Shown here piece by piece: positions 12,931 to 26,805 of a stretch of DNA of 64,000 nucleotides. The stretch lies in UHGV virus genome UHGV-0134778, one strand, 5' to 3'. The position numbers were made by a program, and so were the translations under genes. The notes beneath the pieces are model-generated. The model was not told the origin of the DNA. It saw only the letters and a program-made list of their open reading frames with translations, and did no database searches. Within the stretch, counting starts at the first letter, position 1; every line of letters starts with the position of its first letter. Origin of the DNA: a virus.

Positions 12931-13203
12931 GTGTATTTTGTTTTCAACAAGAGGGGGTCATCTATGTATAAGTCATTTTCAATCTACTCAAGACAGACAA
13001 AACACTACACAGAGATTCTGATCACTCAGAAAAAATCTGTGGAAGGTGAGTGGGAATATCATCATAAAATGTTGCGTCCAGACTGGGTTTTTGACAGGCT
13101 TATTGCTATGATCCCTCTTGGAGAAGTATACCCTCTGACAGGTCATAGGGATGCTTGGGATTTAATTGACTATATAGATTCATTTAAGGAGCCTAGATTA
13201 TGA
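12931..13203 (+). CDS. hypothetical protein (90 aa)
   Basis: Co-oriented packed ORF. Confidence 0.5.
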   Translation: MYFVFNKRGSSMYKSFSIYSRQTKHYTEILITQKKSVEGEWEYHHKMLRPDWVFDRLIAMIPLGEVYPLTGHRDAWDLIDYIDSFKEPRL

Positions 13204-13598
13204 AGATTGAGATTACTGAAGAAGGTAAGAAAGTCTCTGGTAACTATGCAACAGTTATCCGTGATGTAATGTTCGAAGTCACTAAGATTGGCACATCCAA
13301 GGTTGGTCAAACGGTGAGTGTGCAAGGTAATATCACCTCAGGAGAGAAGATATTCATCGTAATAAAAGGCCAGGACCCTGTAGAAGGGACAGTTGGACGT
13401 GGCGGATACCTGTGTATCTCTGAAGAGCCTCGCATGCTAGTTGCTGATAACTCTACAGGTAAAAAGCGGGTATGTAACACGGACGAGGTGATGATTATCT
13501 ATCCAGTCAACCCGGATGATCCGGCAACATGGATTGTGGGAAATGAAATCTTCTCTTTAGAAGAGTTATCCTTCCCAGCTCCGCGATCTGTTCAGTAA
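13200..13598 (+). CDS. hypothetical protein (132 aa)
   Basis: Co-oriented packed ORF, start overlaps previous stop. Confidence 0.55.
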   Translation: MKIEITEEGKKVSGNYATVIRDVMFEVTKIGTSKVGQTVSVQGNITSGEKIFIVIKGQDPVEGTVGRGGYLCISEEPRMLVADNSTGKKRVCNTDEVMIIYPVNPDDPATWIVGNEIFSLEELSFPAPRSVQ

Positions 13599-13637: not shown

Positions 13638-13871
13638 ATGAAAGTTAAATTTCTTACAGATTTAGGGTACCCTTCCTTGGTTGACTGTGTTGGTAAAATT
13701 GTGGAAGCAAAACGGCTATCTGCAAACGATAATGTTGTCATGGTTAAGGGAAAAGATTTACTAGCTGCAGGTGCAGAGTCTGGCAGGATCTCTCCTGACT
13801 ATACGTATTACCTGTCTTTAAGTAATCTACCAGAACGAGGCGGCAAAGGCCTTGAAGTTGTGGAGGAGTGA
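13638..13871 (+). CDS. hypothetical small acidic protein, 'VEVVEE-tail' paralog family
   Basis: MKVKFL...GKDLLAAGA...GLEVVEE; paralogous to 17196, 17413, 18925, 19287, 19555, 20359. Confidence 0.6.
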   Translation: MKVKFLTDLGYPSLVDCVGKIVEAKRLSANDNVVMVKGKDLLAAGAESGRISPDYTYYLSLSNLPERGGKGLEVVEE

Positions 13872-13876
13872 CAGGT

Positions 13877-14413
13877 ATGCTTCTGATTAACTGGGAAGAC
13901 CTCTATGGGGACAAAGACCCTGTTGCGTTTGTTGATCGTAGGTGGAGGTACACTGAAGAACAACTGGCTGCAAAAAATTTAACTGCAAAACGCAGAAAGA
14001 TCATCCAGTGCAAGTACAAATACGCACAGTTTGCTGCAAAAGTGTCTCCACAAATCGAGAGTTTTGTACTTAAATTGTATGACGAGTACCTCAAATTCAA
14101 ATTGGATTTTGTACAGGTATACCGTGCACAGGTACGTCCAGATACCAACATCTGTAGATGGAAGGTTGTTTGTGATGGTAAAGATTTGCCGCTCAGTTTG
14201 ACAATTGAGTGGCGTTGGGGGTATCATGAGTGCGGTTTGTATGATATTTGGGATGTCATTGTAGATCCTGCTAAGTACCTGAACACAGAGGAGCTGGAAT
14301 ATATCAATAAGGTTATTCTAGATATGTTTTTCAGCTACACCCATGAAAACTCTGAGAAAGAACGGGATAATTTTCTTGACACCCTCGGCAACCACCTGCA
14401 GTGTACAATTTAA
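13877..14413 (+). CDS. hypothetical protein (track ORF 13868..14413)
   Basis: ATG at 13877 with GGAGG upstream. Confidence 0.5.
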   Translation: MLLINWEDLYGDKDPVAFVDRRWRYTEEQLAAKNLTAKRRKIIQCKYKYAQFAAKVSPQIESFVLKLYDEYLKFKLDFVQVYRAQVRPDTNICRWKVVCDGKDLPLSLTIEWRWGYHECGLYDIWDVIVDPAKYLNTEELEYINKVILDMFFSYTHENSEKERDNFLDTLGNHLQCTI

Positions 14414-14431
14414 CCTACAAAGGAGGAGCCA

Positions 14432-14635
14432 ATGAGTATAGATGCTGTGCTGATAGGTTACCTGGTAGTAGCTGTTATAACAGCAGTAATCTTGGCAGGT
14501 ATATGCATCGTGTCTACCCGAAGGGTGAAGTTTGATGATTTTATCACCATCATCACTGCTGCGCCCTTTTGGCCTGTTGTTATCTTCATCGTAATAATGT
14601 GCCTAGTTGATTACCACAAGAATATCCGTAAGTAG
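14432..14635 (+). CDS. hypothetical small membrane protein (67 aa)
   Basis: Strongly hydrophobic throughout. Confidence 0.5.
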   Translation: MSIDAVLIGYLVVAVITAVILAGICIVSTRRVKFDDFITIITAAPFWPVVIFIVIMCLVDYHKNIRK

Positions 14636-14887
14636 AAAAAGGAGAGTAGGGATGGATACCGCACCTAAAACTGTTTATACTGTTCTTAAAGAGATTGCAT
14701 TCTACGCAGATCTTAGCCGGGCACCTTTATGGGAAAAGAATATGTATTTAAAATGGTGCGTGAAATTAGGGGGGCCTTCTAATGTTTCAAGCCATGTTTA
14801 TTGAAATGCTCTCTGGGGTATTACTGCTGGTAGCCATTTTAGGTGGCGCGGCGCTGATGTATAATTATCTTGAAAAAGGGGACAGTA

Positions 14888-15073
14888 ATGACAAAAAATA
14901 AATCCTTAGAACAGGCTGAAAACCTTCTCCACGAGCTGGTAAAGGAGTGGAAAGTTGAATACTCAGATTTTAATGCAAGAGAGGGGGAAGATTATTGGCC
15001 TACGGAGCGCTCAGAGGGAGAGTGGTATCAAGATTTCATAGAATGGCTATATCAGACGTGCGATGAGGGGTGA
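14888..15073 (+). CDS. hypothetical protein (track ORF 14870..15073 trimmed to ATG)
   Basis: ATG at 14888 preceded by AAAGGGGA. Confidence 0.45.
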   Translation: MTKNKSLEQAENLLHELVKEWKVEYSDFNAREGEDYWPTERSEGEWYQDFIEWLYQTCDEG

Positions 15074-15531
15074 CGATGTTTGTTAAATATGTAAAAACGT
15101 GCCTCAACAACCTTGGTAGAGAGCATTGGTACACACTGCTTGAAAAAGGAGAAATTTTAACAAAATCTGGAAAGATAACTTTGATACCTTTGGACGATAA
15201 AGACCCGTCACTACTTGTCATAGATGATTACGTTACAGGTGTGTCGTACGAGGTATCTGTGGAGAGGTTAATACGCAGATCTGGAGGTCCTTATGACCGA
15301 AGAGAGTATGTTTTCGATTCCGTTACAGAGAAGGAAGATCCGTCTCTAATGTTTAGGATGGTAATCAGGGATATGAAATCATCTATAAATAGGATCGTAA
15401 AGGACATTAAGGAGCCTTTTAGGGTAAAAGTTAAGAAGTTTTTTGATTCTAAGATCAACATACTTGCAGTTGTGCTAGGCGTAATTCAACTTCTGTTAAT
15501 TTTGCACTATTTTGAACTGTTGTTTAAGTAA
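15070..15531 (+). CDS. hypothetical protein (153 aa), hydrophobic C-terminus
   Basis: Co-oriented ORF with ATGA overlap. Confidence 0.5.
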   Translation: MTMFVKYVKTCLNNLGREHWYTLLEKGEILTKSGKITLIPLDDKDPSLLVIDDYVTGVSYEVSVERLIRRSGGPYDRREYVFDSVTEKEDPSLMFRMVIRDMKSSINRIVKDIKEPFRVKVKKFFDSKINILAVVLGVIQLLLILHYFELLFK

Positions 15532-15591
15532 TGTGCATTATGGCACAAAGGATGTGCCATAACTAAATAAACTAAGAAAGAGGTAGAGAGA

Positions 15592-15939
15592 ATGTCAAAG
15601 ATTAAATCGATATTAATGTGGGTGGCTGTTGTAGCTTTTGTAGGATACTGGACTTGGGAAACTGAATTAAAAGATATTGGGTATACCAGTCTTGAGAGTA
15701 AGGCGTGCATTGGCATAACCGATGCATTCAGGCAGAATGCTATGGATCACGAATGTGTCGATGCAGATATAGATGAGAAACTGTCTAAGGACAAAGATTT
15801 TTACCATGGTCATGCCTTGCTTGATAGTGGTGATACTGTAGAATTCTGGTCGTGGTTCCGTGAAGATGGGACAATAAAGACAGCAGTAAAGATTTCCAAC
15901 AAAGAGTTGATGCTGTTGCAGCAGAAGGAGGTGCAATGA
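15592..15939 (+). CDS. hypothetical protein with N-terminal transmembrane segment (115 aa)
   Basis: N-terminal hydrophobic helix ILMWVAVVAFVGYW; AGAGGTAGAGAG RBS. Confidence 0.5.
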   Translation: MSKIKSILMWVAVVAFVGYWTWETELKDIGYTSLESKACIGITDAFRQNAMDHECVDADIDEKLSKDKDFYHGHALLDSGDTVEFWSWFREDGTIKTAVKISNKELMLLQQKEVQ

Positions 15940-16205
15940 TCTGGATATCCTACGCTGATGGCACCATGCTGTATACTGCAGGTACTAGATATGAAGTTAA
16001 GGAGGACGATAAAAAATTTATCGTAAAAACATTTGACAAGGACGACAACCTTTTGCTAGAATTGACTTACAAGGTTGGGGATGTATCTAGCATCCAATTG
16101 GATTGCGGTCATAAAGATAACCCGCTCAAGAAACCTGGGGTAGGTAAAGCTTCAGAAGAACGCCTGTCTCGTATTGCAGAAAGCGTTTCTGCACAAAAAA
16201 TCTAA
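15936..16205 (+). CDS. hypothetical protein (89 aa)
   Basis: Overlapping start/stop with previous gene. Confidence 0.5.
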   Translation: MIWISYADGTMLYTAGTRYEVKEDDKKFIVKTFDKDDNLLLELTYKVGDVSSIQLDCGHKDNPLKKPGVGKASEERLSRIAESVSAQKI

Positions 16206-16220
16206 AAAGGGGACTAGAAA

Positions 16221-16415
16221 ATGAAAAACTTACATTTTAACACTTATTACTACAACACTTTGAATGATTTGTATTATATTGTTCGAAGTAAAAATCCTGA
16301 AACAGTCCTATTCTGCCGCGAACCTTTCAAAGGAGAGGAAGTGGAGTCTGAGATGAATGTTAGCCAGATTACCTCTTTGTTGCTCTCAGGTGCAATGGAA
16401 GAAGCAATATTCTAA
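16221..16415 (+). CDS. hypothetical protein (64 aa)
   Basis: Co-oriented packed ORF. Confidence 0.45.
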   Translation: MKNLHFNTYYYNTLNDLYYIVRSKNPETVLFCREPFKGEEVESEMNVSQITSLLLSGAMEEAIF

Positions 16416-16433
16416 ACCAGGCGGGAGGGTTTT

Positions 16434-16622
16434 ATGAAGCACTATTGTCTGTCTGGTAGGATGGGGGTGGATTGTGATTGGGTTTTCTTAAAACTTGTCA
16501 GCGTTCGAGAGTCCATCCCAGAGGAAGAGCAAGAAAGCGAGCTGATGTCATGGATCAACCATTACGGTAACACTTTTCGGCATGTTAAGGTAGAAGAGTT
16601 GCCAAGCGAGGCTGAATTATGA
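16434..16622 (+). CDS. hypothetical protein (62 aa)
   Basis: Co-oriented packed ORF. Confidence 0.45.
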   Translation: MKHYCLSGRMGVDCDWVFLKLVSVRESIPEEEQESELMSWINHYGNTFRHVKVEELPSEAEL

Positions 16623-16915
16623 AACTTTTTGAGTGGTTTAAAAAGTTTAAATATAAAGCTGTAGCCATCGTGCCGTGGTCCATTCAGTGGGTTGATGAAG
16701 GTGGTCTACCGATACCTGGTGACAAAGATACTGGGTACTGGATTATGATGGAGAACGGGTTTGGAAAGCGAAAGTATACGTGCACAAACTCTACTCGATC
16801 TGCACTTAATAGAGTGCCTGGTTACAAACTTATGGTTGTGTGGAAAATGTCAGGCGTGCCTCCAGCCAATGCTCAATTTCTTACTGACAATCCGACCACG
16901 GTAGAGGGAGATTGA
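16619..16915 (+). CDS. hypothetical protein (98 aa)
   Basis: ATGA overlap with previous gene. Confidence 0.5.
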   Translation: MKLFEWFKKFKYKAVAIVPWSIQWVDEGGLPIPGDKDTGYWIMMENGFGKRKYTCTNSTRSALNRVPGYKLMVVWKMSGVPPANAQFLTDNPTTVEGD

Positions 16916-17199
16916 TAATGAAAAAGATTAACAGTAGTGAAGTAGAGTTTAAACTTGTCGGAAAAGGCACTTACTGGGAAGTTCGTCAAAAGGTATATTT
17001 GTTCGGTCTTATTCCCTACTGGTCTAAATTCTACTGGGGAGCTAACGAGTTGGGAAGATACGCCACCAAATCAATGGCACTTATTGGTATAGCAGAGTAC
17101 ATTGCAGCCCGAGACAGGGTTGGAACCACTTATTACTACACTGCTGACGATATTCGTAACAGTGTTTACGTCCCACAACCACCTGATGGAGACCGTTGA
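16912..17199 (+). CDS. hypothetical protein (95 aa)
   Basis: ATGA overlap with previous gene. Confidence 0.5.
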   Translation: MIMKKINSSEVEFKLVGKGTYWEVRQKVYLFGLIPYWSKFYWGANELGRYATKSMALIGIAEYIAARDRVGTTYYYTADDIRNSVYVPQPPDGDR

Positions 17200-17423
17200 T
17201 GAAAGTTAAAGTTTTAGATTCAAGCTTCTATATTGGTCAGGAGCCTTTAGTAGGAAAAGTGTTTACTGCTGTCCCTAACGAAGATTACCCTGACCTTTTA
17301 AAAATAAAAGGAGCAGATCTTATTGCCGCTGGTGCATCTCAGGAATGCTTTGACAGTCAGTGGACCTATAACTTTGCCCTAGGTGAGGATGTAGAGGTAG
17401 TGGAGGACGATCATGAAGGTTAA
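17196..17423 (+). CDS. hypothetical small acidic protein, 'VEVVEE-tail' paralog
   Basis: MMKVKVLDS...GADLIAAGA...EDVEVVEDDHEG. Confidence 0.6.
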   Translation: MMKVKVLDSSFYIGQEPLVGKVFTAVPNEDYPDLLKIKGADLIAAGASQECFDSQWTYNFALGEDVEVVEDDHEG

Positions 17424-17667
17424 AATTCTTGATTCTAACGTCTACTTGGGACAATCCTTCCTGAATGGAAAGGTCGTTCCTGCGGTATACTTTGAAGGGT
17501 TGCCGTGGGATGATCCTGTGCGGCAACATCACAGTTATGTAGGCCACAACGTGGTGTTTATCTTGGGATCAGACCTGATCACCGCTGGTGCACCTGAATA
17601 TTATTTCGGGGAAGAGTCCTACTATGCCTTTGGGGTAGGGTCAGATGCAGATATTGTAGAGCTGTGA
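17413..17667 (+). CDS. hypothetical small acidic protein, 'VEVVEE-tail' paralog
   Basis: MKVKILDSNVYLGQ...SDLITAGAP...SDADIVEL. Confidence 0.6.
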   Translation: MKVKILDSNVYLGQSFLNGKVVPAVYFEGLPWDDPVRQHHSYVGHNVVFILGSDLITAGAPEYYFGEESYYAFGVGSDADIVEL

Positions 17668-17679
17668 TGGGTAACCGTT

Positions 17680-18078
17680 GTGAAAAATAAACTGTTTAAA
17701 GTTACAATGAAAATTCGCGGAGCTTGGAGCGTAAAGCAAGGGCGCATCCCAGAGTTTGAGAAAGACTTCTACGTAGTCTCCACCTCTGAAGAGGCTGCAT
17801 GCTGGCAGGCTGGATATGCCTATGCAAGAACCTGGTACGAAGGATACCAGACTGGAGGCTATGACGGAGAAATTGTCAGCAAGGGTGTGGAAGAAATTAA
17901 TGTGTTGACAAGTGAAAAAGTTTTTGTTATAGTGCATCCTGATTCTAGAGTGAAGCATTACTGGAATGCCAGAACAAAAACCTGGACACCGTTTGCAGAT
18001 TCTGCTACACCGCTTTTAAACCAGAAAGCTCTTGACTCTGCCCCAAGCTATGGGGTTGTTGAAGAAAAGATAAGCTGA
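17680..18078 (+). CDS. hypothetical protein (132 aa), paralog of 19887..20282
   Basis: Shared pattern HPxS...YW...WTP...L with 19887..20282. Confidence 0.6.
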   Translation: MKNKLFKVTMKIRGAWSVKQGRIPEFEKDFYVVSTSEEAACWQAGYAYARTWYEGYQTGGYDGEIVSKGVEEINVLTSEKVFVIVHPDSRVKHYWNARTKTWTPFADSATPLLNQKALDSAPSYGVVEEKIS

Positions 18079-18095
18079 AATAGTGGGGTACTTAC

Positions 18096-18386
18096 ATGAT
18101 GGATTTAGTTTTGGACACTGATAACACCGAATCGTTTAAAAAAGATGGTGTAATAAGCATGGACCAACCCTGCCATGCCAAGATTGACTCAAAATGGACC
18201 TACAAGTTTGACGGTGAGATCTTCGCAAATGATGAGAAGGTCGTGGATGCTGTAGCCATTTTAAACGCTTTAGGGTATGACCCTGTGAACTCATTGATCA
18301 AGGATCCTGTTGAGTTTGCAGAGTATGTTCGTAAAATGGCAGATCTTGCAGTAGATATTTTAAAAACTATCGACGACAAGCTGTAA
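18096..18386 (+). CDS. hypothetical protein (96 aa)
   Basis: Co-oriented ORF. Confidence 0.5.
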   Translation: MMDLVLDTDNTESFKKDGVISMDQPCHAKIDSKWTYKFDGEIFANDEKVVDAVAILNALGYDPVNSLIKDPVEFAEYVRKMADLAVDILKTIDDKL

Positions 18387-18392
18387 AAACTG

Positions 18393-18421
18393 TTGACACA
18401 ACACTTGATCTTTAGTATCAT
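18393..18421 (+). promoter_or_regulatory. sigma70-like promoter upstream of hpf
   Basis: TTGACA 18393-18398, 17-nt spacer, TATCAT 18416-18421; followed by stem-loop AGAGGG-TTTGGTT-CCCTCT. Confidence 0.55.
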
Positions 18422-18468
18422 TATTTTCAAAGAGGGTTTGGTTCCCTCTTCTTTAAAAGGAGCACGTT

Positions 18469-18786
18469 ATGCAGATTGAAATCACTGGCAACGTAGAGAT
18501 CACTGAAGGTATGGTGTCTTTCATTTCCCACAAAATGTCCAAACTGGAGCGTTTGCACCCATCTGCCAACTATGCACGTGTGAGTGTAAAAGTTGAAAAT
18601 GATCACCAGGAAGTTATGGCTTTTATTTTTGACAATTCTGGGAAAGAAGTTATCGCCAAAGCTAAAGGTAGCGATGCTTACGAGGCAACTGACCGTATGG
18701 TGGATGTTGCAGCACGCCAGTTGGCTAAATGCGGTGGAAAGAAAGGTAAGGGAAAAGGTAAAGTAAAGATTGACTTTTTAGATTAA
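18469..18786 (+). CDS. hpf: ribosome hibernation promoting factor / ribosome-associated inhibitor homolog (105 aa)
   Basis: Close match by eye to bacterial HPF/YfiA: MQIEITGNVEITEGM...KLERL...VSVKVEN...AKAKGSDAYEATDRMVDVAARQLAK. Confidence 0.7.
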   Translation: MQIEITGNVEITEGMVSFISHKMSKLERLHPSANYARVSVKVENDHQEVMAFIFDNSGKEVIAKAKGSDAYEATDRMVDVAARQLAKCGGKKGKGKGKVKIDFLD

Positions 18787-18795
18787 GGTGCTACA

Positions 18796-18897
18796 ATGGG
18801 CATGATTAAGAAATTAGTCCCAAATGTAGAGATTGCATGCTTTGAAATTATGTTTGCAATCGCAGTTGTAGTTAATGTGTTAGGTTACGGCTATTAA
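18796..18897 (+). CDS. small hydrophobic peptide (33 aa), below track cutoff
   Basis: AAGGTG RBS; MGMIKKLVPNVEIACFEIMFAIAVVVNVLGYGY. Confidence 0.35.
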   Translation: MGMIKKLVPNVEIACFEIMFAIAVVVNVLGYGY

Positions 18898-18924
18898 TTA
18901 TCAAATAATTGAGGAGACCTCTAA

Positions 18925-19194
18925 ATGAAAATTAAATTATTCAAAACTGAGCTGGCAGACAAAAACTGCGGACTGGTTGAAGGCATGATCGTTGAAGCAC
19001 AACCAGTTGACTACATGAAGGTGGTTCGTGATGCCCTGGGTGAAGGTTTTGATCTGATGGAGCCAGCTCTGCGAGAAGATGTCATCGAGATGGCTAAAAA
19101 GCACACACCGGAAGGTTTGGTAGTGTTTGTTGCACCAGGTAACGGGGAAGAGTTGATTGTAACTCCGGATGTGTATGAGGTTGTAGAAGAGTAA
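18925..19194 (+). CDS. hypothetical small acidic protein, 'VEVVEE-tail' paralog
   Basis: MKIKLFK...VTPDVYEVVEE. Confidence 0.6.
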   Translation: MKIKLFKTELADKNCGLVEGMIVEAQPVDYMKVVRDALGEGFDLMEPALREDVIEMAKKHTPEGLVVFVAPGNGEELIVTPDVYEVVEE

Positions 19195-19286
19195 TCCTGC
19201 TTGGGTTGGAATACTTTCCTCGACAAGAAAGGTTTATAATTATTTGTGGGAAAGGAATCCCCATCTCTTACCAGAGGTGATACTAT

Positions 19287-19550
19287 ATGATTGTTTATTT
19301 TAAAACTTCAGGTGGATACCCTGATTCTCAAAGCTTGATTGGAAAAACGTGCACAGCATACTCACCTCTTGATGAGGAGGTAAGTGGTATCCTACGAGAT
19401 ATGTATCGGATTGATCCACAAGAAGCTTTTGATCAAAACCTTGTATTTGTCAAGGGATCAGACATAAAGTCTTTGGGGGCATTCCCTGAAGCAGATGATG
19501 ATGCTGTTTATTCGTTTATGACACCTTTTGAAGCTATGGTTGTGGGGTAA
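19287..19550 (+). CDS. hypothetical small protein, related to the 'VEVVEE' family
   Basis: MIVYFKTSGGYP...VKGSDIKSLGA...; first gene of duplicated 3-gene module. Confidence 0.55.
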   Translation: MIVYFKTSGGYPDSQSLIGKTCTAYSPLDEEVSGILRDMYRIDPQEAFDQNLVFVKGSDIKSLGAFPEADDDAVYSFMTPFEAMVVG

Positions 19551-19554
19551 GAAT

Positions 19555-19887
19555 ATGAAAGTACGCTTTATTGGTGAAACAATTCCTGTGCATCTCCGGT
19601 CTCCTGAAGACTCTGCAGATCTTGCATCTCAAAAGGCGAGAGGGTATGATAAGAAAGTGATCTCAAGCAATGTAGAGCTTGAGGCCACCAGTCTGCCTGA
19701 CCCAGCTGCATTCTTCAATCATTATGGCTACTATTTTAGCAATCTGATGAATATTGGTGAGCTTGTGTTTATTAGTGGTGGAGAGATAGTTAGCAAGCTT
19801 GGTGGAGATCCGGATATCTTTCATGAAACCTGTCCTTTTGCATTTGTGGTGGGTTCAGATGTGGAAGTTATTGAGGAGGTTCGGTAA
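19555..19887 (+). CDS. hypothetical small acidic protein, 'VEVVEE-tail' paralog (track ORF 19528..19887 trimmed)
   Basis: ATG at 19555 with GGGGTAAG upstream; ...GSDVEVIEEVR. Confidence 0.55.
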   Translation: MKVRFIGETIPVHLRSPEDSADLASQKARGYDKKVISSNVELEATSLPDPAAFFNHYGYYFSNLMNIGELVFISGGEIVSKLGGDPDIFHETCPFAFVVGSDVEVIEEVR

Positions 19888-20282
19888 TGGTAAGTCTATA
19901 CCGTGTTGAGTATAGCTCGGATACTGTATACAACGTAAGAAGCAAAGATCGCAGTGATAGAGTGCAAGAAATGTATGTTCTTGCAGATAGTCCGTTATCT
20001 GCAGCGTTCAAGGCAGGAGCTCTTGCATCTCGTTGGAAATTTGAGGGTGGATCTTTCTATGAAGAAACCCTCGAAGATTCTGTTGTTATTTCTTCTGTAG
20101 AGGTTTCAACCGACTACGAAGGGAAAAAGTTCGTAATGCGGCACCCACACAGCAACATTGCGTACTACTGGGATGTTCTGAACAATGAGTGGACACCTGA
20201 TCTTCAGAAGGCCACTGTTCTAACCCCATTCCTGGCAGATAAGTTCCCACCAGAAGGTAATTTATCTGCACTGTTTCAGTAA
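19887..20282 (+). CDS. hypothetical protein (131 aa), paralog of 17680..18078
   Basis: Shared HPHS..YYW...WTP motif. Confidence 0.6.
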   Translation: MVSLYRVEYSSDTVYNVRSKDRSDRVQEMYVLADSPLSAAFKAGALASRWKFEGGSFYEETLEDSVVISSVEVSTDYEGKKFVMRHPHSNIAYYWDVLNNEWTPDLQKATVLTPFLADKFPPEGNLSALFQ

Positions 20283-20300
20283 TTTTATGCCACACAGGTG

Positions 20301-20329
20301 TTGACAACACCAACCCTGTGTGCAATAAT
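20301..20329 (+). promoter_or_regulatory. sigma70-like promoter with flanking palindrome
   Basis: TTGACA 20301-20306, 17-nt spacer, AATAAT; inverted repeat CACAGG...CCTGTG brackets the -35. Confidence 0.45.
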
Positions 20330-20358
20330 ACCTTCATCTTAACAAGATAGGAGACCGA

Positions 20359-20619
20359 TTGATGAAGATTAAATTGAAAAACCTTGAAACGGCAGAGATT
20401 CAGGAAGGTGTTGATTTCCGTTCTAAAGATGGAGACATCCTAGAGGCGAATGTCCCGACATATAAGTTGATTAAAGGTTTTGGCAACGTTCCGGAGGAGG
20501 ATATTACAGACATTCTTATGATGTTGATCCTTGACGGGACTGTGTTTGTAGGTGAAGGTGAGAACGCTATTGCAATCCCGAGCCATTTTTATGAAGTAGT
20601 TGACGAAGAGGTGCTGTAA
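20359..20619 (+). CDS. hypothetical small acidic protein, 'VEVVEE-tail' paralog
   Basis: MMKIKLKN...SHFYEVVDEEVL. Confidence 0.6.
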   Translation: MMKIKLKNLETAEIQEGVDFRSKDGDILEANVPTYKLIKGFGNVPEEDITDILMMLILDGTVFVGEGENAIAIPSHFYEVVDEEVL

Positions 20620-20970
20620 ATGAAAGTAGAGATCACAGGTTTTGATATGAATGCGGTTCCGGAAGATATTTTAGCTAAACTCCCGGAAGGTTTTGGTAAC
20701 GGTGTTGTGGTTGATGCTGTTCCTCCTACCAAAGACATCCTGCTGCAGTATGGTGTGGCAGAGGAAGATGTTGATAAAGTTCTTACAATGATGGCAATCG
20801 ACCGTGTTGTCGTTGTTAAAGGTCTTGAAGGTTTTGATAACGATCCTCTGATTATTCGTGGTGATGACTATCGTATCATCGACAACGAAGGTCAGGGGTT
20901 CTACGAACCTTCTGCTGAAGATGTTCTTAACTTACTACTGGAAGCAGGTACCGTAGAGGAGGCAGAATAA
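20620..20970 (+). CDS. hypothetical acidic protein (116 aa)
   Basis: Co-oriented; acidic C-terminus GTVEEAE. Confidence 0.5.
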   Translation: MKVEITGFDMNAVPEDILAKLPEGFGNGVVVDAVPPTKDILLQYGVAEEDVDKVLTMMAIDRVVVVKGLEGFDNDPLIIRGDDYRIIDNEGQGFYEPSAEDVLNLLLEAGTVEEAE

Positions 20971-21299
20971 TGAAAATTGATCCGTTACTGAAGGCTCGTG
21001 CAGAAAAAGCATACACTATTAAGCTGACCTCTCTGGTTCCTACTTGTCATCCAGATGTAGGTTGGCCTGAAGGTCTGGTAGAGGGGACTGTAACAGCCGC
21101 ATATCTCCCTAACATCAAATACCTCATGGAGATCTTGGAGATGGATGAGGAAACGGCAGAACAGTTCCAGTTAGACATGAAGCAAAGTGGGACTCTGGTT
21201 ATTCACGGGTGGTATAATACTAAAGATGCAGAAGATCCCCTGGTAACTTCTAATCTGGCATATGAGATCTTAGGGCCTTTGAACTTGGGGGAAGACTAA
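20970..21299 (+). CDS. hypothetical protein (109 aa)
   Basis: Co-oriented packed ORF. Confidence 0.5.
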   Translation: MKIDPLLKARAEKAYTIKLTSLVPTCHPDVGWPEGLVEGTVTAAYLPNIKYLMEILEMDEETAEQFQLDMKQSGTLVIHGWYNTKDAEDPLVTSNLAYEILGPLNLGED

Positions 21300-21586
21300 T
21301 GAAAGATTTGGTTAAGATCAAGATTAAAGACACCAATGGAGAACTCAGCCATTTTGGAATTAACGATGGTGACGAGCTGATCGCCCACCTGCCTACCAAG
21401 GAAGTTGTAAGCAAAGCGGTTGCCGGAGAAGAAGATGCAATGCAGGCTGCAGGTGTGGATGAAAACTATGTAGCAATGTGTATGTGCCGAGATCAGGTTG
21501 TTCTGTATAAAGCGTATCGACCAAATGGAGCACCTGAGTGGCTTGTTTTCCGACCCGAAGGATATGAAATTTTAGAGACGCTATGA
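21299..21586 (+). CDS. hypothetical protein (95 aa)
   Basis: Co-oriented packed ORF. Confidence 0.5.
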   Translation: MKDLVKIKIKDTNGELSHFGINDGDELIAHLPTKEVVSKAVAGEEDAMQAAGVDENYVAMCMCRDQVVLYKAYRPNGAPEWLVFRPEGYEILETL

Positions 21587-22094: not shown

Positions 22095-22346
22095 ATGACG
22101 AAGATTGACTTAAATGCTGGCGACCATGTTGTTGTCAAATGCATCGGGGATTATCTTGGATTCACAATCGGCAATACTTACGAGGCAGTGGTGGCGAAGG
22201 TTTATCATGATAAAGTCCTTAGCCTTGTATTTGACTGTGATGATGACGGAGATGACCGCTACGTCTGTGAGGTGCTGGCACGTGACGATAGTGAAGACCA
22301 GAAATTCCTGGTTATCGAACTGAACGGTATTTTTGTAGAACGTTAA
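22095..22346 (+). CDS. hypothetical protein (track ORF 22029..22346 trimmed)
   Basis: ATG at 22095 preceded by AAGGAG. Confidence 0.5.
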   Translation: MTKIDLNAGDHVVVKCIGDYLGFTIGNTYEAVVAKVYHDKVLSLVFDCDDDGDDRYVCEVLARDDSEDQKFLVIELNGIFVER

Positions 22347-22680: not shown

Positions 22681-22686
22681 CAACGA

Positions 22687-22734: not shown

Positions 22735-23061
22735 ATGCTAATGCCGATTACTGTAAAAGAACTAAATGAACGTGATGCAGGAGGCCTGTGGCCTGCACGG
22801 AAAATACGCTGCGTTTATATGAAAGAGAATCTTGAACACCTTGATCAACAGATTGCGGTTGGCGATATTTTCGAAGTTCTCTATTCTAATCGTCGCAACT
22901 GGGAAACCATTCAACCTTCCGGTTTTGTTCTTGCCAGACTTGATACCGGAGAAGTGATTATCCCTGGGCTGGATATTGTCTTCGAAATTATCCAGGAGTG
23001 GGATCCTGATAAGATTAAATATGAAGAGTTATTCGGTGAAGGTATTATCAGGCCTGTATGA
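22735..23061 (+). CDS. hypothetical protein (108 aa)
   Basis: GAAGGAGA RBS. Confidence 0.5.
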   Translation: MLMPITVKELNERDAGGLWPARKIRCVYMKENLEHLDQQIAVGDIFEVLYSNRRNWETIQPSGFVLARLDTGEVIIPGLDIVFEIIQEWDPDKIKYEELFGEGIIRPV

Positions 23062-24063: not shown

Positions 24064-24279
24064 ATGAAGATAGAAATATTTGGTGGAGCTGACAACACTT
24101 GTGGCCTGATTTACCTCGAATTCGATGAATCGTACCTGCCAGAAGTGTTAAACATGGATTCTGTTGCTGAGGCTTTGGGAGTAAGTCCTAAAGATCTCTA
24201 CTCTGGTGCTGAGATTGATGGTTGGGAGGAGACCATGAACATCGATTTCAGTGAAGTAGGTGATGAACCGCTGGACTGA
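24064..24279 (+). CDS. hypothetical acidic protein (71 aa), last plus-strand gene of block
   Basis: AGAGGAGA RBS upstream. Confidence 0.5.
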   Translation: MKIEIFGGADNTCGLIYLEFDESYLPEVLNMDSVAEALGVSPKDLYSGAEIDGWEETMNIDFSEVGDEPLD

Positions 24280-25802
24280 CACACAATTAGTTGCCCGGCT
24301 AAAGTGCTGGAAGCACCCATAACATCTTCCAACTAAATTTCCTACCAACACAGTTACTTACCCACCACACATGACTGTTTGCTTGTTTAGTGAGCAGTCA
24401 TCCCTTGACATTCTTGCCTATCTTGATAAAATTAAGTTCTTCTCTTTTCTTTTACCGAGTAATTCGGGTTTTCTGTTCTCTTCGGTTTGAAGGGGTATGG
24501 AGATACACCTGAGTGAACAGGGTGAACAACCGAACCTTTAGCTATGGCATTAGCATGGCGAAGCGGACGGGTGACGAAAGAGGGGCCGGAGGACACCAGT
24601 CACTGCCATATAGTATATGGGTGATAACCTGAAGAGTCTGAATAAGTGTTTAAGTACCAGTCAGAGGAAAAGGTGAATGGTAGCCGAAGGGGGAGGGGGG
24701 TTTCTTATATCTTTAATTTGTATACTTTATATACACTTGTAAACCAATTCAATTAGGATCTGTTTACCACACAAAGTGGATGGAGACAAATATCACCTAT
24801 TAAACTTGAATTATTTATAGAAAATACCACAACACTACTTAAGTCTTTGATTTTACACACAAATCCTACAGATACTCACCCTCCATATTTAACATACTTG
24901 TAACATATCCCATACTCTACCTGTCTGATCAATTTACCCAACTACATCCCCATATTTTTCCTGTCTGTACTACCCCTGCCCCGCCGGGAGTCCCGTCATA
25001 TCTGGCTTCCCAGCAAATATCACACCCACAAATATCATTGCCTGAAGAGGGTTTCATCCCATAATACACACCTTGCCTGAAGAGCGATTCATACACCAAC
25101 TAAATTTTTTAATTGACCCCTCCCCGCCGCCGGAGAGGTTGGCTTTTCCCACACAGGCCTGAAGAGTCAGCCAGAAATATCTGAACAGGCCCAGTTATAC
25201 CACGATTTTGACATGACCGACAGGAGTGCTACCCTGTCAGGAGCCGGTAGCGACTGGAGTGCTGCCAGGCGGACGAAATGGGAATACTTCTCATTCTTAT
25301 AACAATTCTCAAATATCGAGGCAGTGAGGCAAATTAATAGGTGAGGCCGTTCACACAGTGGCACAACATTTGCAACCTATCTTGTGGGGTGAATGAGAAT
25401 ACCTATCATTGTGAGAATAGTTATCATTACGGGCAATTTAACATAATACCCATTATGCGCACCACTGGCGATACATACAGGGATTGATAACATGGGTTAC
25501 TGTTTACGCACATAACAATTATATTTCTTACTATTTGTGCGGGATATAGTTAGCAACCAATAGATTAGATATTGACCTGCGGACTTCTGACCGTCCAGAC
25601 GTCTAAACGCCCACACAACAAGGGTTATACATACATTCCTGAATGTAAACAGGGCCGCAAAAATGCTACCATACCAGTTTGTAAATTTTTCATGCAGCAC
25701 TTGACAAAGAGGAGAAAAACTTGTCTGACACTTTTGCCACTTTTGACACTTTTACCTTTGACACAATATGACACAATAACGGCTGTTACTATTCCATATC
25801 TC

Positions 25803-25858
25803 ACTGTTTACGCATAGACTGTTTACGCCTGAATAGTTTACGCCCAAACTGTTTACAC
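25803..25858 (+). repeat. four tandem iteron-like repeats ACTGTTTACGC
   Basis: ACTGTTTACGC at 25803 and 25818, AGTTTACGC at 25835, ACTGTTTACAC at 25848; further copies near 25508 and 26322. Confidence 0.7.
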
Positions 25859-25869
25859 AGAGATGATGA

Positions 25870-26163
25870 GCCATGCCATTCGTTTGCATGAAAACAATTA
25901 ACAAGATAACAATTAACAAGTTAATAATCTTTCGCTGGCTATGCCAGGTGACTAGGTCACCCCTTCGGGCGTTTATATGACATAATATAAAAGCAGGGCA
26001 ACTATTAGAAGATCTATAGTTGCCTTGCTTGTTATGTCATGATTAACTAAATACAAGGCAACTATGATCTGAGTAATAGATTGCAGAAAAACTATCACGG
26101 GGGTGATGGTTACTGCTTTTATATTATGTCGCGACTCCGTCGCGCCATGCCATTCGTTTGCAT
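25870..26163. repeat. composite element: 20-bp direct repeats flanking 18-bp inverted repeats and GGCAACTAT hairpins
   Basis: DR GCCATGCCATTCGTTTGCAT at 25870 and 26144; IR GACATAATATAAAAGCAG (25979-25996) vs CTGCTTTTATATTATGTC (26113-26130); GGCAACTAT/ATAGTTGCC four times; palindromes GGTGACTAGGTCACC and GCGACTCCGTCGC. Confidence 0.7.
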
Positions 26164-26780
26164 AGTTGCCTTATTGTTACAGGTAAAATAATTACATTAT
26201 TAATTATTTCTTATCTTTCTCTTAGTCATCTAATGATTCCAGTCAGTATAGTAATGTACAGTAAACATTAGACGACTAAAGATTTCTCTGTTTATGATAA
26301 CTCATCGTGATAATTTCGGGCTGTTTACGAAAAATGTTGACACCTGAGCTGATTTATGTTATGCAGTCTACACGAATAATTATTTTATGCAGGTATTGAC
26401 TATTCCGTTATTCTGTGGTTGGAATAAATACTTTGCAGGCTATAGAATGGCGTGCGTACGTGAATTCTGAGATCTGGCGGCTATAGTTATACTCGATTTT
26501 TCGCGTAGAACACGCTTTAGATGCTGTGTAAGTGTATGACTTATAAAGATTTTTAGTTGTTGACAAGATATTGGAGATGTGCATCAGGTTAAAATTTGTG
26601 CAATAGCGGCATTACGTGCACTTTTGGGAGAGAAAACGGGTAAAAATGGACTTGCTACCACACAATGAAAAATTATGCAATAGTTATTTTCCATGTATAT
26701 TTGTACAGTATGTGGGATTGATGGCTAGTCAATTATTCCACTTGCCAGGTAGGGCCGTTTATGGTAGGAGAAGAGCAGAC

Positions 26781-26805
26781 AAAAAGAAAGGGGCCTAAGC
26801 CCCTT
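26781..26805 (-). terminator. intrinsic terminator ending the minus-strand block
   Basis: On minus strand AAGGGGC-TTAG-GCCCCTT hairpin followed by TCTTTTT. Confidence 0.6.

Follow-up and report, generated by a model that had tools for sequence, protein, structure and literature searches.

Small paralogous genes of an rV5-like coliphage sort into three families, two of them predicted SH3-like barrels

The closest described analogue of the proteins considered here is a group of three proteins of phage T4. GoF and its paralogues (MotB.1 and Frd.2) form a set of non-essential early proteins with an SH3/LSm-like fold that was recognised by structure prediction and not by BLAST; a GoF mutant stabilises an mRNA, and wild-type GoF and MotB.1 showed no RNA effect (Kim et al. 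2025, PMC12152347). Here, we examined a 64,000-nucleotide stretch of viral DNA (UHGV virus genome UHGV-0134778, referred to below as the window) and, within it, twelve small repeated genes between positions 13,638 and 21,586. These genes, named by the coordinate of their first nucleotide, sort into three families that we call A, B, and C.

Families A and B share some features with the T4 group. Both consist of paralogues in one large lytic coliphage, and their models show a predicted five-stranded antiparallel SH3/LSm-like β-barrel. The T4 genes lie in dispensable early regions; among the genes considered here, a natural deletion indicates dispensability for the first of two gene modules (module 1) only, and sigma-70-type promoter matches suggest early expression. 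There are also differences. No profile link connects the two groups (family A, family B, and broad-family hidden Markov models (HMMs), E ≥0.24; hhalign probability ≤4.2%), which excludes membership in the GoF/MotB.1/Frd.2 family at the sequence level. The T4 proteins (119–141 aa) have a C-terminal domain of their own, which a flexible linker joins to the N-terminal barrel, whereas the A and B proteins are single-domain chains of 74–116 aa. Moreover, the T4 family has been described as confined to Tevenvirinae, whereas family A spans vequintaviruses, Krischvirus and Moonvirus, phages of Vibrio, Aeromonas, and Proteus, and lambdoid prophages. The A and B proteins resemble the T4 group loosely without being members of it, and are newly delimited, sequence-unrelated, putative phage accessory proteins.

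Other comparisons are more distant. The A and B proteins are only 4–25% identical to canonical SH3, KOW, and Sm domains and to PsaE, match no Pfam SH3, KOW, or LSM model, and differ from these domains in being strongly acidic. Family A has a signature of its own, a short helix G-x-(D/E)-L-I-x-A-G-A after strand 3, which no Pfam model matched. PHROG 5009 (considered with 13367, 13920, and 13661), a catalogue entry that covers part of the family, includes the genes 13638, 17199, and 17413 and carries no fold, function, or description.

Twelve repeated genes in three families

The phage of the window is a Vequintavirus, an rV5-like Escherichia coli myophage. Its 9-kb region of repeated genes is 93–97% identical to more than 110 GenBank Vequintavirus records, the closest to the window being vB_EcoM-ECP26 (96.6%), and gene order is conserved across vequintaviruses. 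Eighteen GenBank records (MG0656xx) labelled as Campylobacter jejuni phage are about 94% identical to E. coli vequintaviruses here, and their host labels look doubtful. A preliminary description of the window had listed seven open reading frames (ORFs) in the region as one family of small acidic paralogues. All seven are present on the plus strand, and about 120 GenBank vequintaviruses have orthologues of them among their annotated genes. In the Vequintavirus records, every gene of the region is "hypothetical" except the homologue of a ribosome hibernation factor. For this section, the rV5 genome paper gives just "88 mainly small ORFs", with no word of a paralogous family (PMC3606486).

The shared N- and C-terminal motifs to which the preliminary description pointed exceed chance. 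Among 464 six-frame ORFs of the window, 13 carry the N-terminal motif and 12 the C-terminal one; both occur together in five, against 0.34 expected, and all five are among the seven listed. All-against-all comparison of the 31 genes of the region by blastp and phmmer gave three families among twelve repeated genes: family A (13638, 17199, 17413, 19287, and 19555), family B (18925, 20362, 20620, 20970, and 21299), and family C, the pair 17680/19887 with the common motif HP.S...YW.....WTP. An HMM of the family A genes and their orthologues recovered its members at E 2e-18 to 5e-36, with the next-best of the 464 ORFs at 0.39. For HMMs of the family B orthologue groups, the best non-self match among the same ORFs was always another B gene, at E 8e-5 to 0.03. 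As far as sequence comparison can tell, family A is a robust grouping and family B a weaker yet consistent one.

As a control, profiles of 31 neighbouring gene families from ten vequintavirus-like loci were compared by hhalign in all 465 pairs. The top 15 pairs, and 17 of the 18 best, all fell within A, B, or C. Nine of ten family A pairs reached P ≤4e-4 (best 5e-22), seven of ten family B pairs P ≤1.4e-3, and the family C pair P = 2.7e-11; unrelated pairs gave P 2e-3 to 3e-2. These values bear on the idea that the likeness is due to chance or composition, without common ancestry or fold, MK starts being frequent and the acidic ends being forced by the ribosome-binding site that serves the following gene. 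The tail codons do form a downstream Shine-Dalgarno sequence in five cases, and the sequence link between A and B is at noise level. However, within-family profile scores lie far above the 465 local controls, the HMMs single out family members only among the 464 ORFs, the two structural models are confident and show the same fold, and the EVVEE end is conserved also in distant single-copy homologues. Chance likeness is already contradicted for the relationships inside each family, and as a general account it is very improbable.

A single family of at least seven genes can be rejected, since family A HMMs never reach B genes and A–B profile scores equal noise. Genes 18925 and 20359 (the latter label and 20362 denote one gene, with a TTG or an ATG start) scored E >2 against the broad HMM and were absent from family A HMM matches up to E = 10. 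The central G.DL(I/L)AAGA motif, initially ascribed to all seven ORFs, is borne by the five family A genes only, in degenerate form in 19287, and is lacking in 18925 and 20362. Families A and B are distinct; the original list of seven had counted two B genes with A and left out three further ones (20620, 20970, and 21299). In an early pooled A–B comparison, P was 7e-5 to 1e-3 over the N-terminal strand alone.

The local duplication and divergence proposed at the outset is real, and the three-gene module described there does recur: two family A genes are followed by a gene of 131 or 132 codons at 17199–18078 (module 1) and at 19287–20282 (module 2), the two longer products being paralogous (Table 1). 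A clean duplication of the three-gene block is nevertheless ruled out. The nearest relative of 17199 is the adjacent 17413 and not 19287, 17199 and 17413 being mutually closest, and distant relatives of the phage have one family C gene, so the repeated arrangement did not arise by simple block duplication.

The PHROG catalogue divides the families further. Genes 13638, 17199, and 17413 match PHROG 5009 over their full length (Table 1), 19287 does so at just 1.6e-4, and 19555 and all B genes are unmatched. Because 19287 and 19555 are assigned to PHROGs apart from 5009, and the B genes to five others, neither the paralogy nor the common fold can be read from the catalogue.

Predicted fold of families A and B

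We obtained AlphaFold2 models for one family A member (17199, from a 31-sequence alignment) and one family B member. The model of 17199 has a mean pLDDT of 90.2, with strands at residues 2–5, 21–26, 33–37, 56–61, and 65–69 and a short helix at 38–43 that corresponds to the DLIAAG motif. The family B model (pLDDT 85.7) has an identical strand order. Since a five-stranded barrel with the same order of strands appears in both, both families can be modelled as SH3-like small barrels, and all ten A and B proteins are confidently predicted to be single-domain five-stranded SH3-like β-barrels. The barrel occupies the whole chain in both models, with no N-terminal helix.

The fold also places the terminal motifs. 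In the modelled barrel, strand 1 corresponds to the MK(V/I)K start and strand 5 to the (Y/V)E(V/I)(V/I)E end, so the "acidic tail" consists of strand 5 plus one to four acidic residues and is not of low complexity; the similarity among these proteins is accordingly not limited to low-complexity tails. The structural neighbours of the models in BFVD are all uncharacterised phage proteins, the top match to the 17199 model being the Shigella phage CM1 orthologue of 19287 (TM 0.81). In the alignments, most of the length variation among paralogues lies in the segment that joins strands 2 and 3; a few members also vary in the strand 1–2 region or at the termini. The inserts in the strand 2–3 loop range from 0 to about 40 residues and are helical in the family B model. 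We take this position to match the n-Src loop of SH3 domains, which determines their specificity.

As initially described, these are small, acidic proteins, with pI 4.05–5.4 and a net charge of −1 to −18. In agreement with the preliminary description, which assigned them no function, Pfam, NCBIfam, and PDB gave no sequence match, and the only PHROGs matched are of unknown function. None of the ten proteins matched Pfam at E up to 1, and no member of the broad alignment did so at E up to 0.01. Searches of Pfam, NCBIfam, PDB sequences, and Rfam returned nothing for the family genes (PADLOC was not among the libraries searched).

The fold class raises the possibility of LSm/KOW-like proteins that bind RNA and, in the infected cell, adjust how stable mRNAs are or how they are translated, the role proposed for T4 GoF. 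The T4 proteins share the fold class and a GoF mutant affects an mRNA (PMC12152347), and a ribosome hibernation factor gene lies between the two modules. On the other hand, the strong net negative charge (−7 to −18) disfavours nucleic-acid binding, Pfam detects no Sm or KOW signatures, and the models lack the N-terminal helix of Sm/Hfq-type RNA chaperones. There is also no sequence relation to GoF, MotB.1, or Frd.2 (HMM E >0.2, hhalign probability <5%), and the wild-type GoF and MotB.1 proteins themselves had no RNA effect (PMC12152347). We consider an RNA-binding role unlikely.

Conservation, natural variants, and distribution

All twelve genes are under purifying selection, with dN/dS of 0.03–0.16 across six vequintavirus genomes. 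Neighbouring genes in the same genomes range from 0.008 to 0.27, including a ClpP-like protease (0.05) and a methyltransferase (0.03). A comparison of dN/dS across related phages had been suggested as a check on the family; the values equal those of neighbouring genes, with no sign of positive selection or gene turnover. In full comparison with the window, none of five vequintavirus loci has lost a copy. Diverged relatives, whose orthologues are about 45–60% identical, still have the A and B genes, five of each, in unchanged order. The retention of both arrays at this distance indicates that they are old, and tandem duplication gave rise to the families long before the divergence of the present genus.

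Family C has a different history. The diverged relatives (loci L015–L017) have a single family C gene, the orthologue of the module 2 copy 19887. Gene 17680 is absent from them, and an unrelated gene of 96–106 aa follows the 17413 orthologue in its slot. Indeed, 17680 was found only in Vequintavirus, three GenBank vequintaviruses are without a close orthologue of it, and the orthologues known for family C are all close ones. A few copies appear broken: in two metagenomic relatives (L016 and L017) the 17413 orthologue is split into pieces of 44 and 37 aa (L016, 3070–3329), and in rV5 (NC_011041; L013, 9026–9296) the 21299 orthologue is split into two ORFs, gp148 and gp149. These split genes are either sequencing errors or decaying copies.

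Chimeric genes were also present. In two cases (P0014 and P0017; L025/L026, 5001–5213), a single gene of 70 codons joining the N-terminus of 17199 to the C-terminus of 17413 replaces both paralogues. A third chimera (P0027; L023, 203–428) is 91% identical in its 5′ half to a lambdoid-prophage homologue and 91% identical in its 3′ half to a vequintavirus gene; it comes from short, low-coverage metagenome contigs and is possibly an assembly artefact. Both types are joined at the DLIAAGA motif. Unequal crossing-over at this conserved motif thus occasionally remodels the genes, at low frequency.

The most informative natural variant is the BASEL phage EduardKellenberger (L014, MZ501061.1, 4707–5183), which has a deletion of about 3.7 kb equivalent to window positions ~14300–17950. 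In it, the orthologue of 13868 is joined to the C-terminal portion of the orthologue of 17680, and about 15 small genes are missing, namely 17199, 17413, 17680, and some 12 others. This phage was isolated on K-12 despite the deletion. Module 1 is therefore dispensable in a viable natural isolate, a conclusion that holds for module 1 only.

These data bear on the suggestion that the arrays serve in anti-defence, each acidic protein inhibiting a different immune system as a DNA mimic or stoichiometric inhibitor and the copies arising by arms-race duplication. Ocr, ArdA, Ugi, p56, and many anti-CRISPRs are small proteins of low pI that are encoded in accessory positions and are dispensable in permissive hosts, and the A and B proteins are alike in these respects: they are small, acidic (pI about 4–4.7), in part dispensable in the defence-poor K-12, and grouped downstream of host-type promoters. 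In other phages, homologues are found at accessory or "moron" sites, among them the lambdoid Q-to-holin region described below, and the chimeras between phage types indicate exchange. However, dN/dS is no higher than in neighbouring genes, the copies are kept in the fully compared loci, and the A and B arrays persist in the diverged relatives; such conservation far exceeds what counter-defence loci, with their fast turnover, usually show. The predicted SH3-like barrel differs from the helical mimics Ocr and ArdA, and no homology to described inhibitor families was found in Pfam, NCBIfam, or PDB sequences. Vequintaviruses are, moreover, exceptionally sensitive to restriction-modification and commonly targeted by abortive-infection systems in the BASEL phenotyping (PMC8594841). 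The statement in the preliminary description that such duplication is typical of host-takeover or anti-defence families amounts to analogy, and we regard an anti-defence function as doubtful.

Family A extends far beyond the genus. Word-indexed searches returned vequintavirus orthologues only, and an exhaustive profile search of 1.8 billion representatives gave 40 family A clusters, about 30 of them distant, full-length, and 65–80 aa long. The distant members have the consensus MKVKLLNDGGY.G...V.GKVV.A...I.G.ELI.AGA...F...Y.F..G.E.EVVEE, the EVVEE end being conserved also in single-copy homologues. In the broad alignment, all 34 members (three window genes and 31 distant homologues) match PHROG 5009. 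By tblastn and genomic context, family A occurs in the T4-like Krischvirus and Moonvirus, where the Merlin gene lies between gp32 and frd, and by tblastn in Proteus and Aeromonas phages. It lies between the SSB and exonuclease genes in Vibrio phage VpV262, and it occurs in uncultured phages of 35–50 kb. A place between a primase-polymerase and an AAA_24 ATPase was also seen among the smaller phages. A lambdoid-prophage homologue of 75 aa, about 50% identical to 13638, has some 300 member sequences (L020/L021, 8001–8228); in E. coli assemblies its gene stands in the late region, between the Q antiterminator and the holin. The Q-to-holin interval of lambdoid prophages is a classical position for moron genes.

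Copy number varies among these phages. GEC-3S has five clustered ORFs, VpV262 three, and one IMG/VR phage three; ten of the 11 sampled IMG/VR loci have a single copy, and fused proteins with two or three family A domains occur. A neighbour gene recurring across the family A contexts in other phages was looked for, and none was found. The presence of a single family A gene inside the replication modules of smaller phages (primase-polymerase/AAA_24; SSB/exonuclease in VpV262; gp32/frd in Merlin) would fit a function in replication or morphogenesis of the phage itself rather than one directed at the host; the proteins might then be small chaperones or accessory subunits of replication or recombination proteins, and strong purifying selection fits as well. 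Against this role are the dispensability of three of the genes in a viable natural isolate, the lack of a recurring neighbour across phages, the absence of detectable family members from the virion, and the position of the lambdoid-prophage gene, which adjoins lysis genes and not replication genes. Such a role appears distinctly unlikely.

Gene organisation and a tentative role

From about 11 kb to 23.4 kb of the window, genes lie exclusively on the plus strand. Within the A/B/C arrays, neighbouring genes touch or overlap, their spacing being −11 to +4 nt. Acidic tail codons such as GTG GAG GAG act in five instances as the Shine-Dalgarno sequence for the gene that follows; the tail codons of 19555, ATTGAGGAGG, for example, are the ribosome-binding site of 19887. 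From this arrangement of the DNA, adjacent genes appear to be translationally coupled and the acidic tail to be constrained at the protein and mRNA levels simultaneously. Because the tail codons double as Shine-Dalgarno sequences, part of the tail similarity is perhaps DNA-constrained too. Two sigma-70-type promoter matches occupy the sole sizeable intergenic gaps, and a strong terminator-like hairpin lies downstream at 22685. As the matches coincide with promoters annotated in rV5 (P144 and P150), early transcription by the host polymerase is plausible, and gene position is consistent with it. The literature on Vequintavirus transcriptomics and early genes yielded no expression data, and a literature search by protein accessions and PHROG identifier found nothing.

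The reading we tentatively favour is that the A and B proteins are non-structural accessory binding modules, built from a barrel scaffold with a variable strand 2–3 loop. Transcribed by the host RNA polymerase, they would bind host or phage proteins stoichiometrically, with the barrel as the constant scaffold and the loop as the variable recognition element. Since the strand 2–3 inserts differ among paralogues, each copy may recognise a different partner or partner surface, and the negative charge makes proteins the most likely partners. The fused two- and three-domain versions found elsewhere suggest that neighbouring copies can act jointly, as multivalent or hetero-oligomeric assemblies. The proteins would raise fitness in nature while being unneeded for growth on a laboratory host. 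A place in the virion has no support, as the rV5 virion mass-spectrometry table of 19 proteins contains no peptide of six family members.

Several points weigh against this interpretation. The models were predicted from shallow alignments of about 30 sequences. The best A–B profile pair (P = 3.2e-3, probability 10%) is inside the noise of the 465 controls, so that common ancestry of A and B, as opposed to a fold alone in common, is undemonstrated by sequence. The functional part of the proposal is drawn from the class of fold, the charge, the position in the genome, and analogy. Some SH3-like barrels are binders of RNA or DNA, as in Hfq and KOW domains. The closest phage analogue, T4 GoF, is itself suspected of acting on RNA (PMC12152347). 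Strong conservation without presence/absence variation would equally fit a housekeeping role in the phage. Finally, the late-operon position of the lambdoid-prophage homologue means that "early" does not apply to the family as a whole, and the single-copy state of most sampled IMG/VR loci means that acting together is not obligatory.

The binding-module interpretation can be taken further, although we consider the extension an unlikely one. Family A would then be a widespread, undescribed, phage-specific SH3-like adaptor domain with the pattern MKVKLL...Y.G...GKV..A...I.G.(D/E)LI.AGA...F...Y.F..G.E.EVVEE, present as single copies in small or temperate phages and as three to five diverged copies or two- to three-domain fusions in some others, including large lytic ones. 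Hetero-oligomers with different loops would give combinatorial recognition of host targets, and the A array with its coupled C genes might encode a multi-subunit host-manipulation complex and not proteins that act independently of one another. Family B would be taken in only if it proves related.

In the rV5-like coliphages, which are common and in therapeutic use, small genes of unknown function make up about one third of the genome. Here, twelve of these genes are reduced to three families, ten of them receive a confidently predicted fold, and one family reaches far beyond the genus. The result is solid as annotation and evolution and is not a functional discovery. It defines a target for experiment, a domain of 70 residues whose helix motif is conserved and whose loop varies, for which natural deletion and chimera variants are already in public phage collections. 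If the proteins are host-binding adaptors, they would form a second, sequence-unrelated example beside the T4 LSm-like early proteins and would suggest small SH3-like barrels as a general scaffold of phage accessory functions.

The coordinates of the genes and signals are collected in Table 1. The true starts of two genes are ATG 17199 and ATG 20362, each three bases past a TTG (17196 and 20359). The start of 17680 is ambiguous in public annotations, and neither candidate has an obvious Shine-Dalgarno sequence.

Table 1. Repeated genes, promoter matches, and tail-codon Shine-Dalgarno sites in the window
Feature	Position	Strand	Description	Scores
Family A member 1 (13638)	13638..13871	+	77 aa, pI 5.4; GKDLLAAGA motif; orthologue of rV5 ORF127	PHROG 5009 2.5e-36; family A HMM 5.9e-24; hhalign to 17199 3.3e-20; dN/dS 0.064
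Family A member 2 (17199)	17199..17423	+	74 aa, pI 4.1; minimal form of the predicted fold; module 1 gene 1	PHROG 5009 1.7e-38
Family A member 3 (17413)	17413..17667	+	84 aa; 20-residue insert between predicted strands 2 and 3; 11-nt overlap with 17199 gene	hhalign to 17199 5e-22; PHROG 5009 3.7e-32
Family C member 1 (17680)	17680..18078	+	132 aa (GTG 17680) or 123 aa (ATG 17707); module 1 gene 3	PHROG 7379 2e-73; blastp to 19887 7e-8
Family B member 1 (18925)	18925..19194	+	89 aa, pI 4.4; YEVVEE end	Orthologue-group HMM, best non-self among 464 ORFs: 20359 0.012, 21299 0.026; hhalign to 21299 P 2.8e-4
Family A member 4 (19287)	19287..19550	+	87 aa; 26-residue insert; degenerate GSDIKSLGA motif; module 2 gene 1	Family A HMM 3.2e-28; broad-family HMM 6.5e-7; hhalign to 17199 1.2e-6
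Family A member 5 (19555)	19555..19887	+	110 aa; long N-terminal/loop insertion; VEVIEEVR end	Family A HMM 1.8e-18; hhalign to 17413 1.2e-9
Family C member 2 (19887)	19887..20282	+	131 aa; module 2 gene 3; copy retained by distant relatives	PHROG 7379 4e-66; hhalign to 17680 2.7e-11; dN/dS 0.032
Family B member 2 (20362)	20362..20619	+	85 aa, pI 4.2; YEVVDEEVL end; heads four-gene abutting array	
Family B member 3 (20620)	20620..20970	+	116 aa, net charge −18, pI 4.05; additional acidic C-terminal extension	hhalign to 20970 4.5e-6, to 20359 4.9e-6
Family B member 4 (20970)	20970..21299	+	109 aa; N-terminal extension	hhalign to 20620 4.5e-6, to 21299 3.5e-4; dN/dS 0.046
Family B member 5 (21299)	21299..21586	+	95 aa	HMM to 20620 0.0016; hhalign to 18925 2.8e-4
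Sigma-70-type promoter match TTGACA-17-TATCAT	18393..18421	+	11/12 consensus positions; upstream of hibernation factor gene (HPF), 18925, and module 2; = rV5 P144	
Sigma-70-type promoter match, extended −10, TTGACA-17-AATAAT	20301..20329	+	11/12 consensus positions; upstream of family B array; = rV5 P150	
Tail-codon Shine-Dalgarno sites	13855-13871, 17400-17412, 19870-19886, 20603-20619, 20953-20969	+	Abutting next gene	

Several features lie beside the arrays. The gene of the ribosome hibernation factor (S30AE) homologue, at 18469–18786 on the plus strand (Pfam PF02482, E 1.8e-12), lies between the two three-gene modules, has its own sigma-70-type promoter match, and is kept in all relatives examined. 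Four nearby small acidic genes (13200–13598, 22095–22346, 22735–23061, and 24064–24279) have an MK(I)E(I) start or a β-rich look and might be further small barrels; HMM and profile comparison left them unlinked to families A–C. Further downstream, window positions ~24400–26800 contain short overlapping ORFs only and gave no match in an Rfam search. This segment is equivalent to the 2.6-kb "non-coding" region of the rV5 paper (rV5 104013–106618). Gene orientation and GC skew change sign there, four short tandem-repeat arrays lie at 25394–25928, and the segment may be an origin of replication or have a regulatory role.

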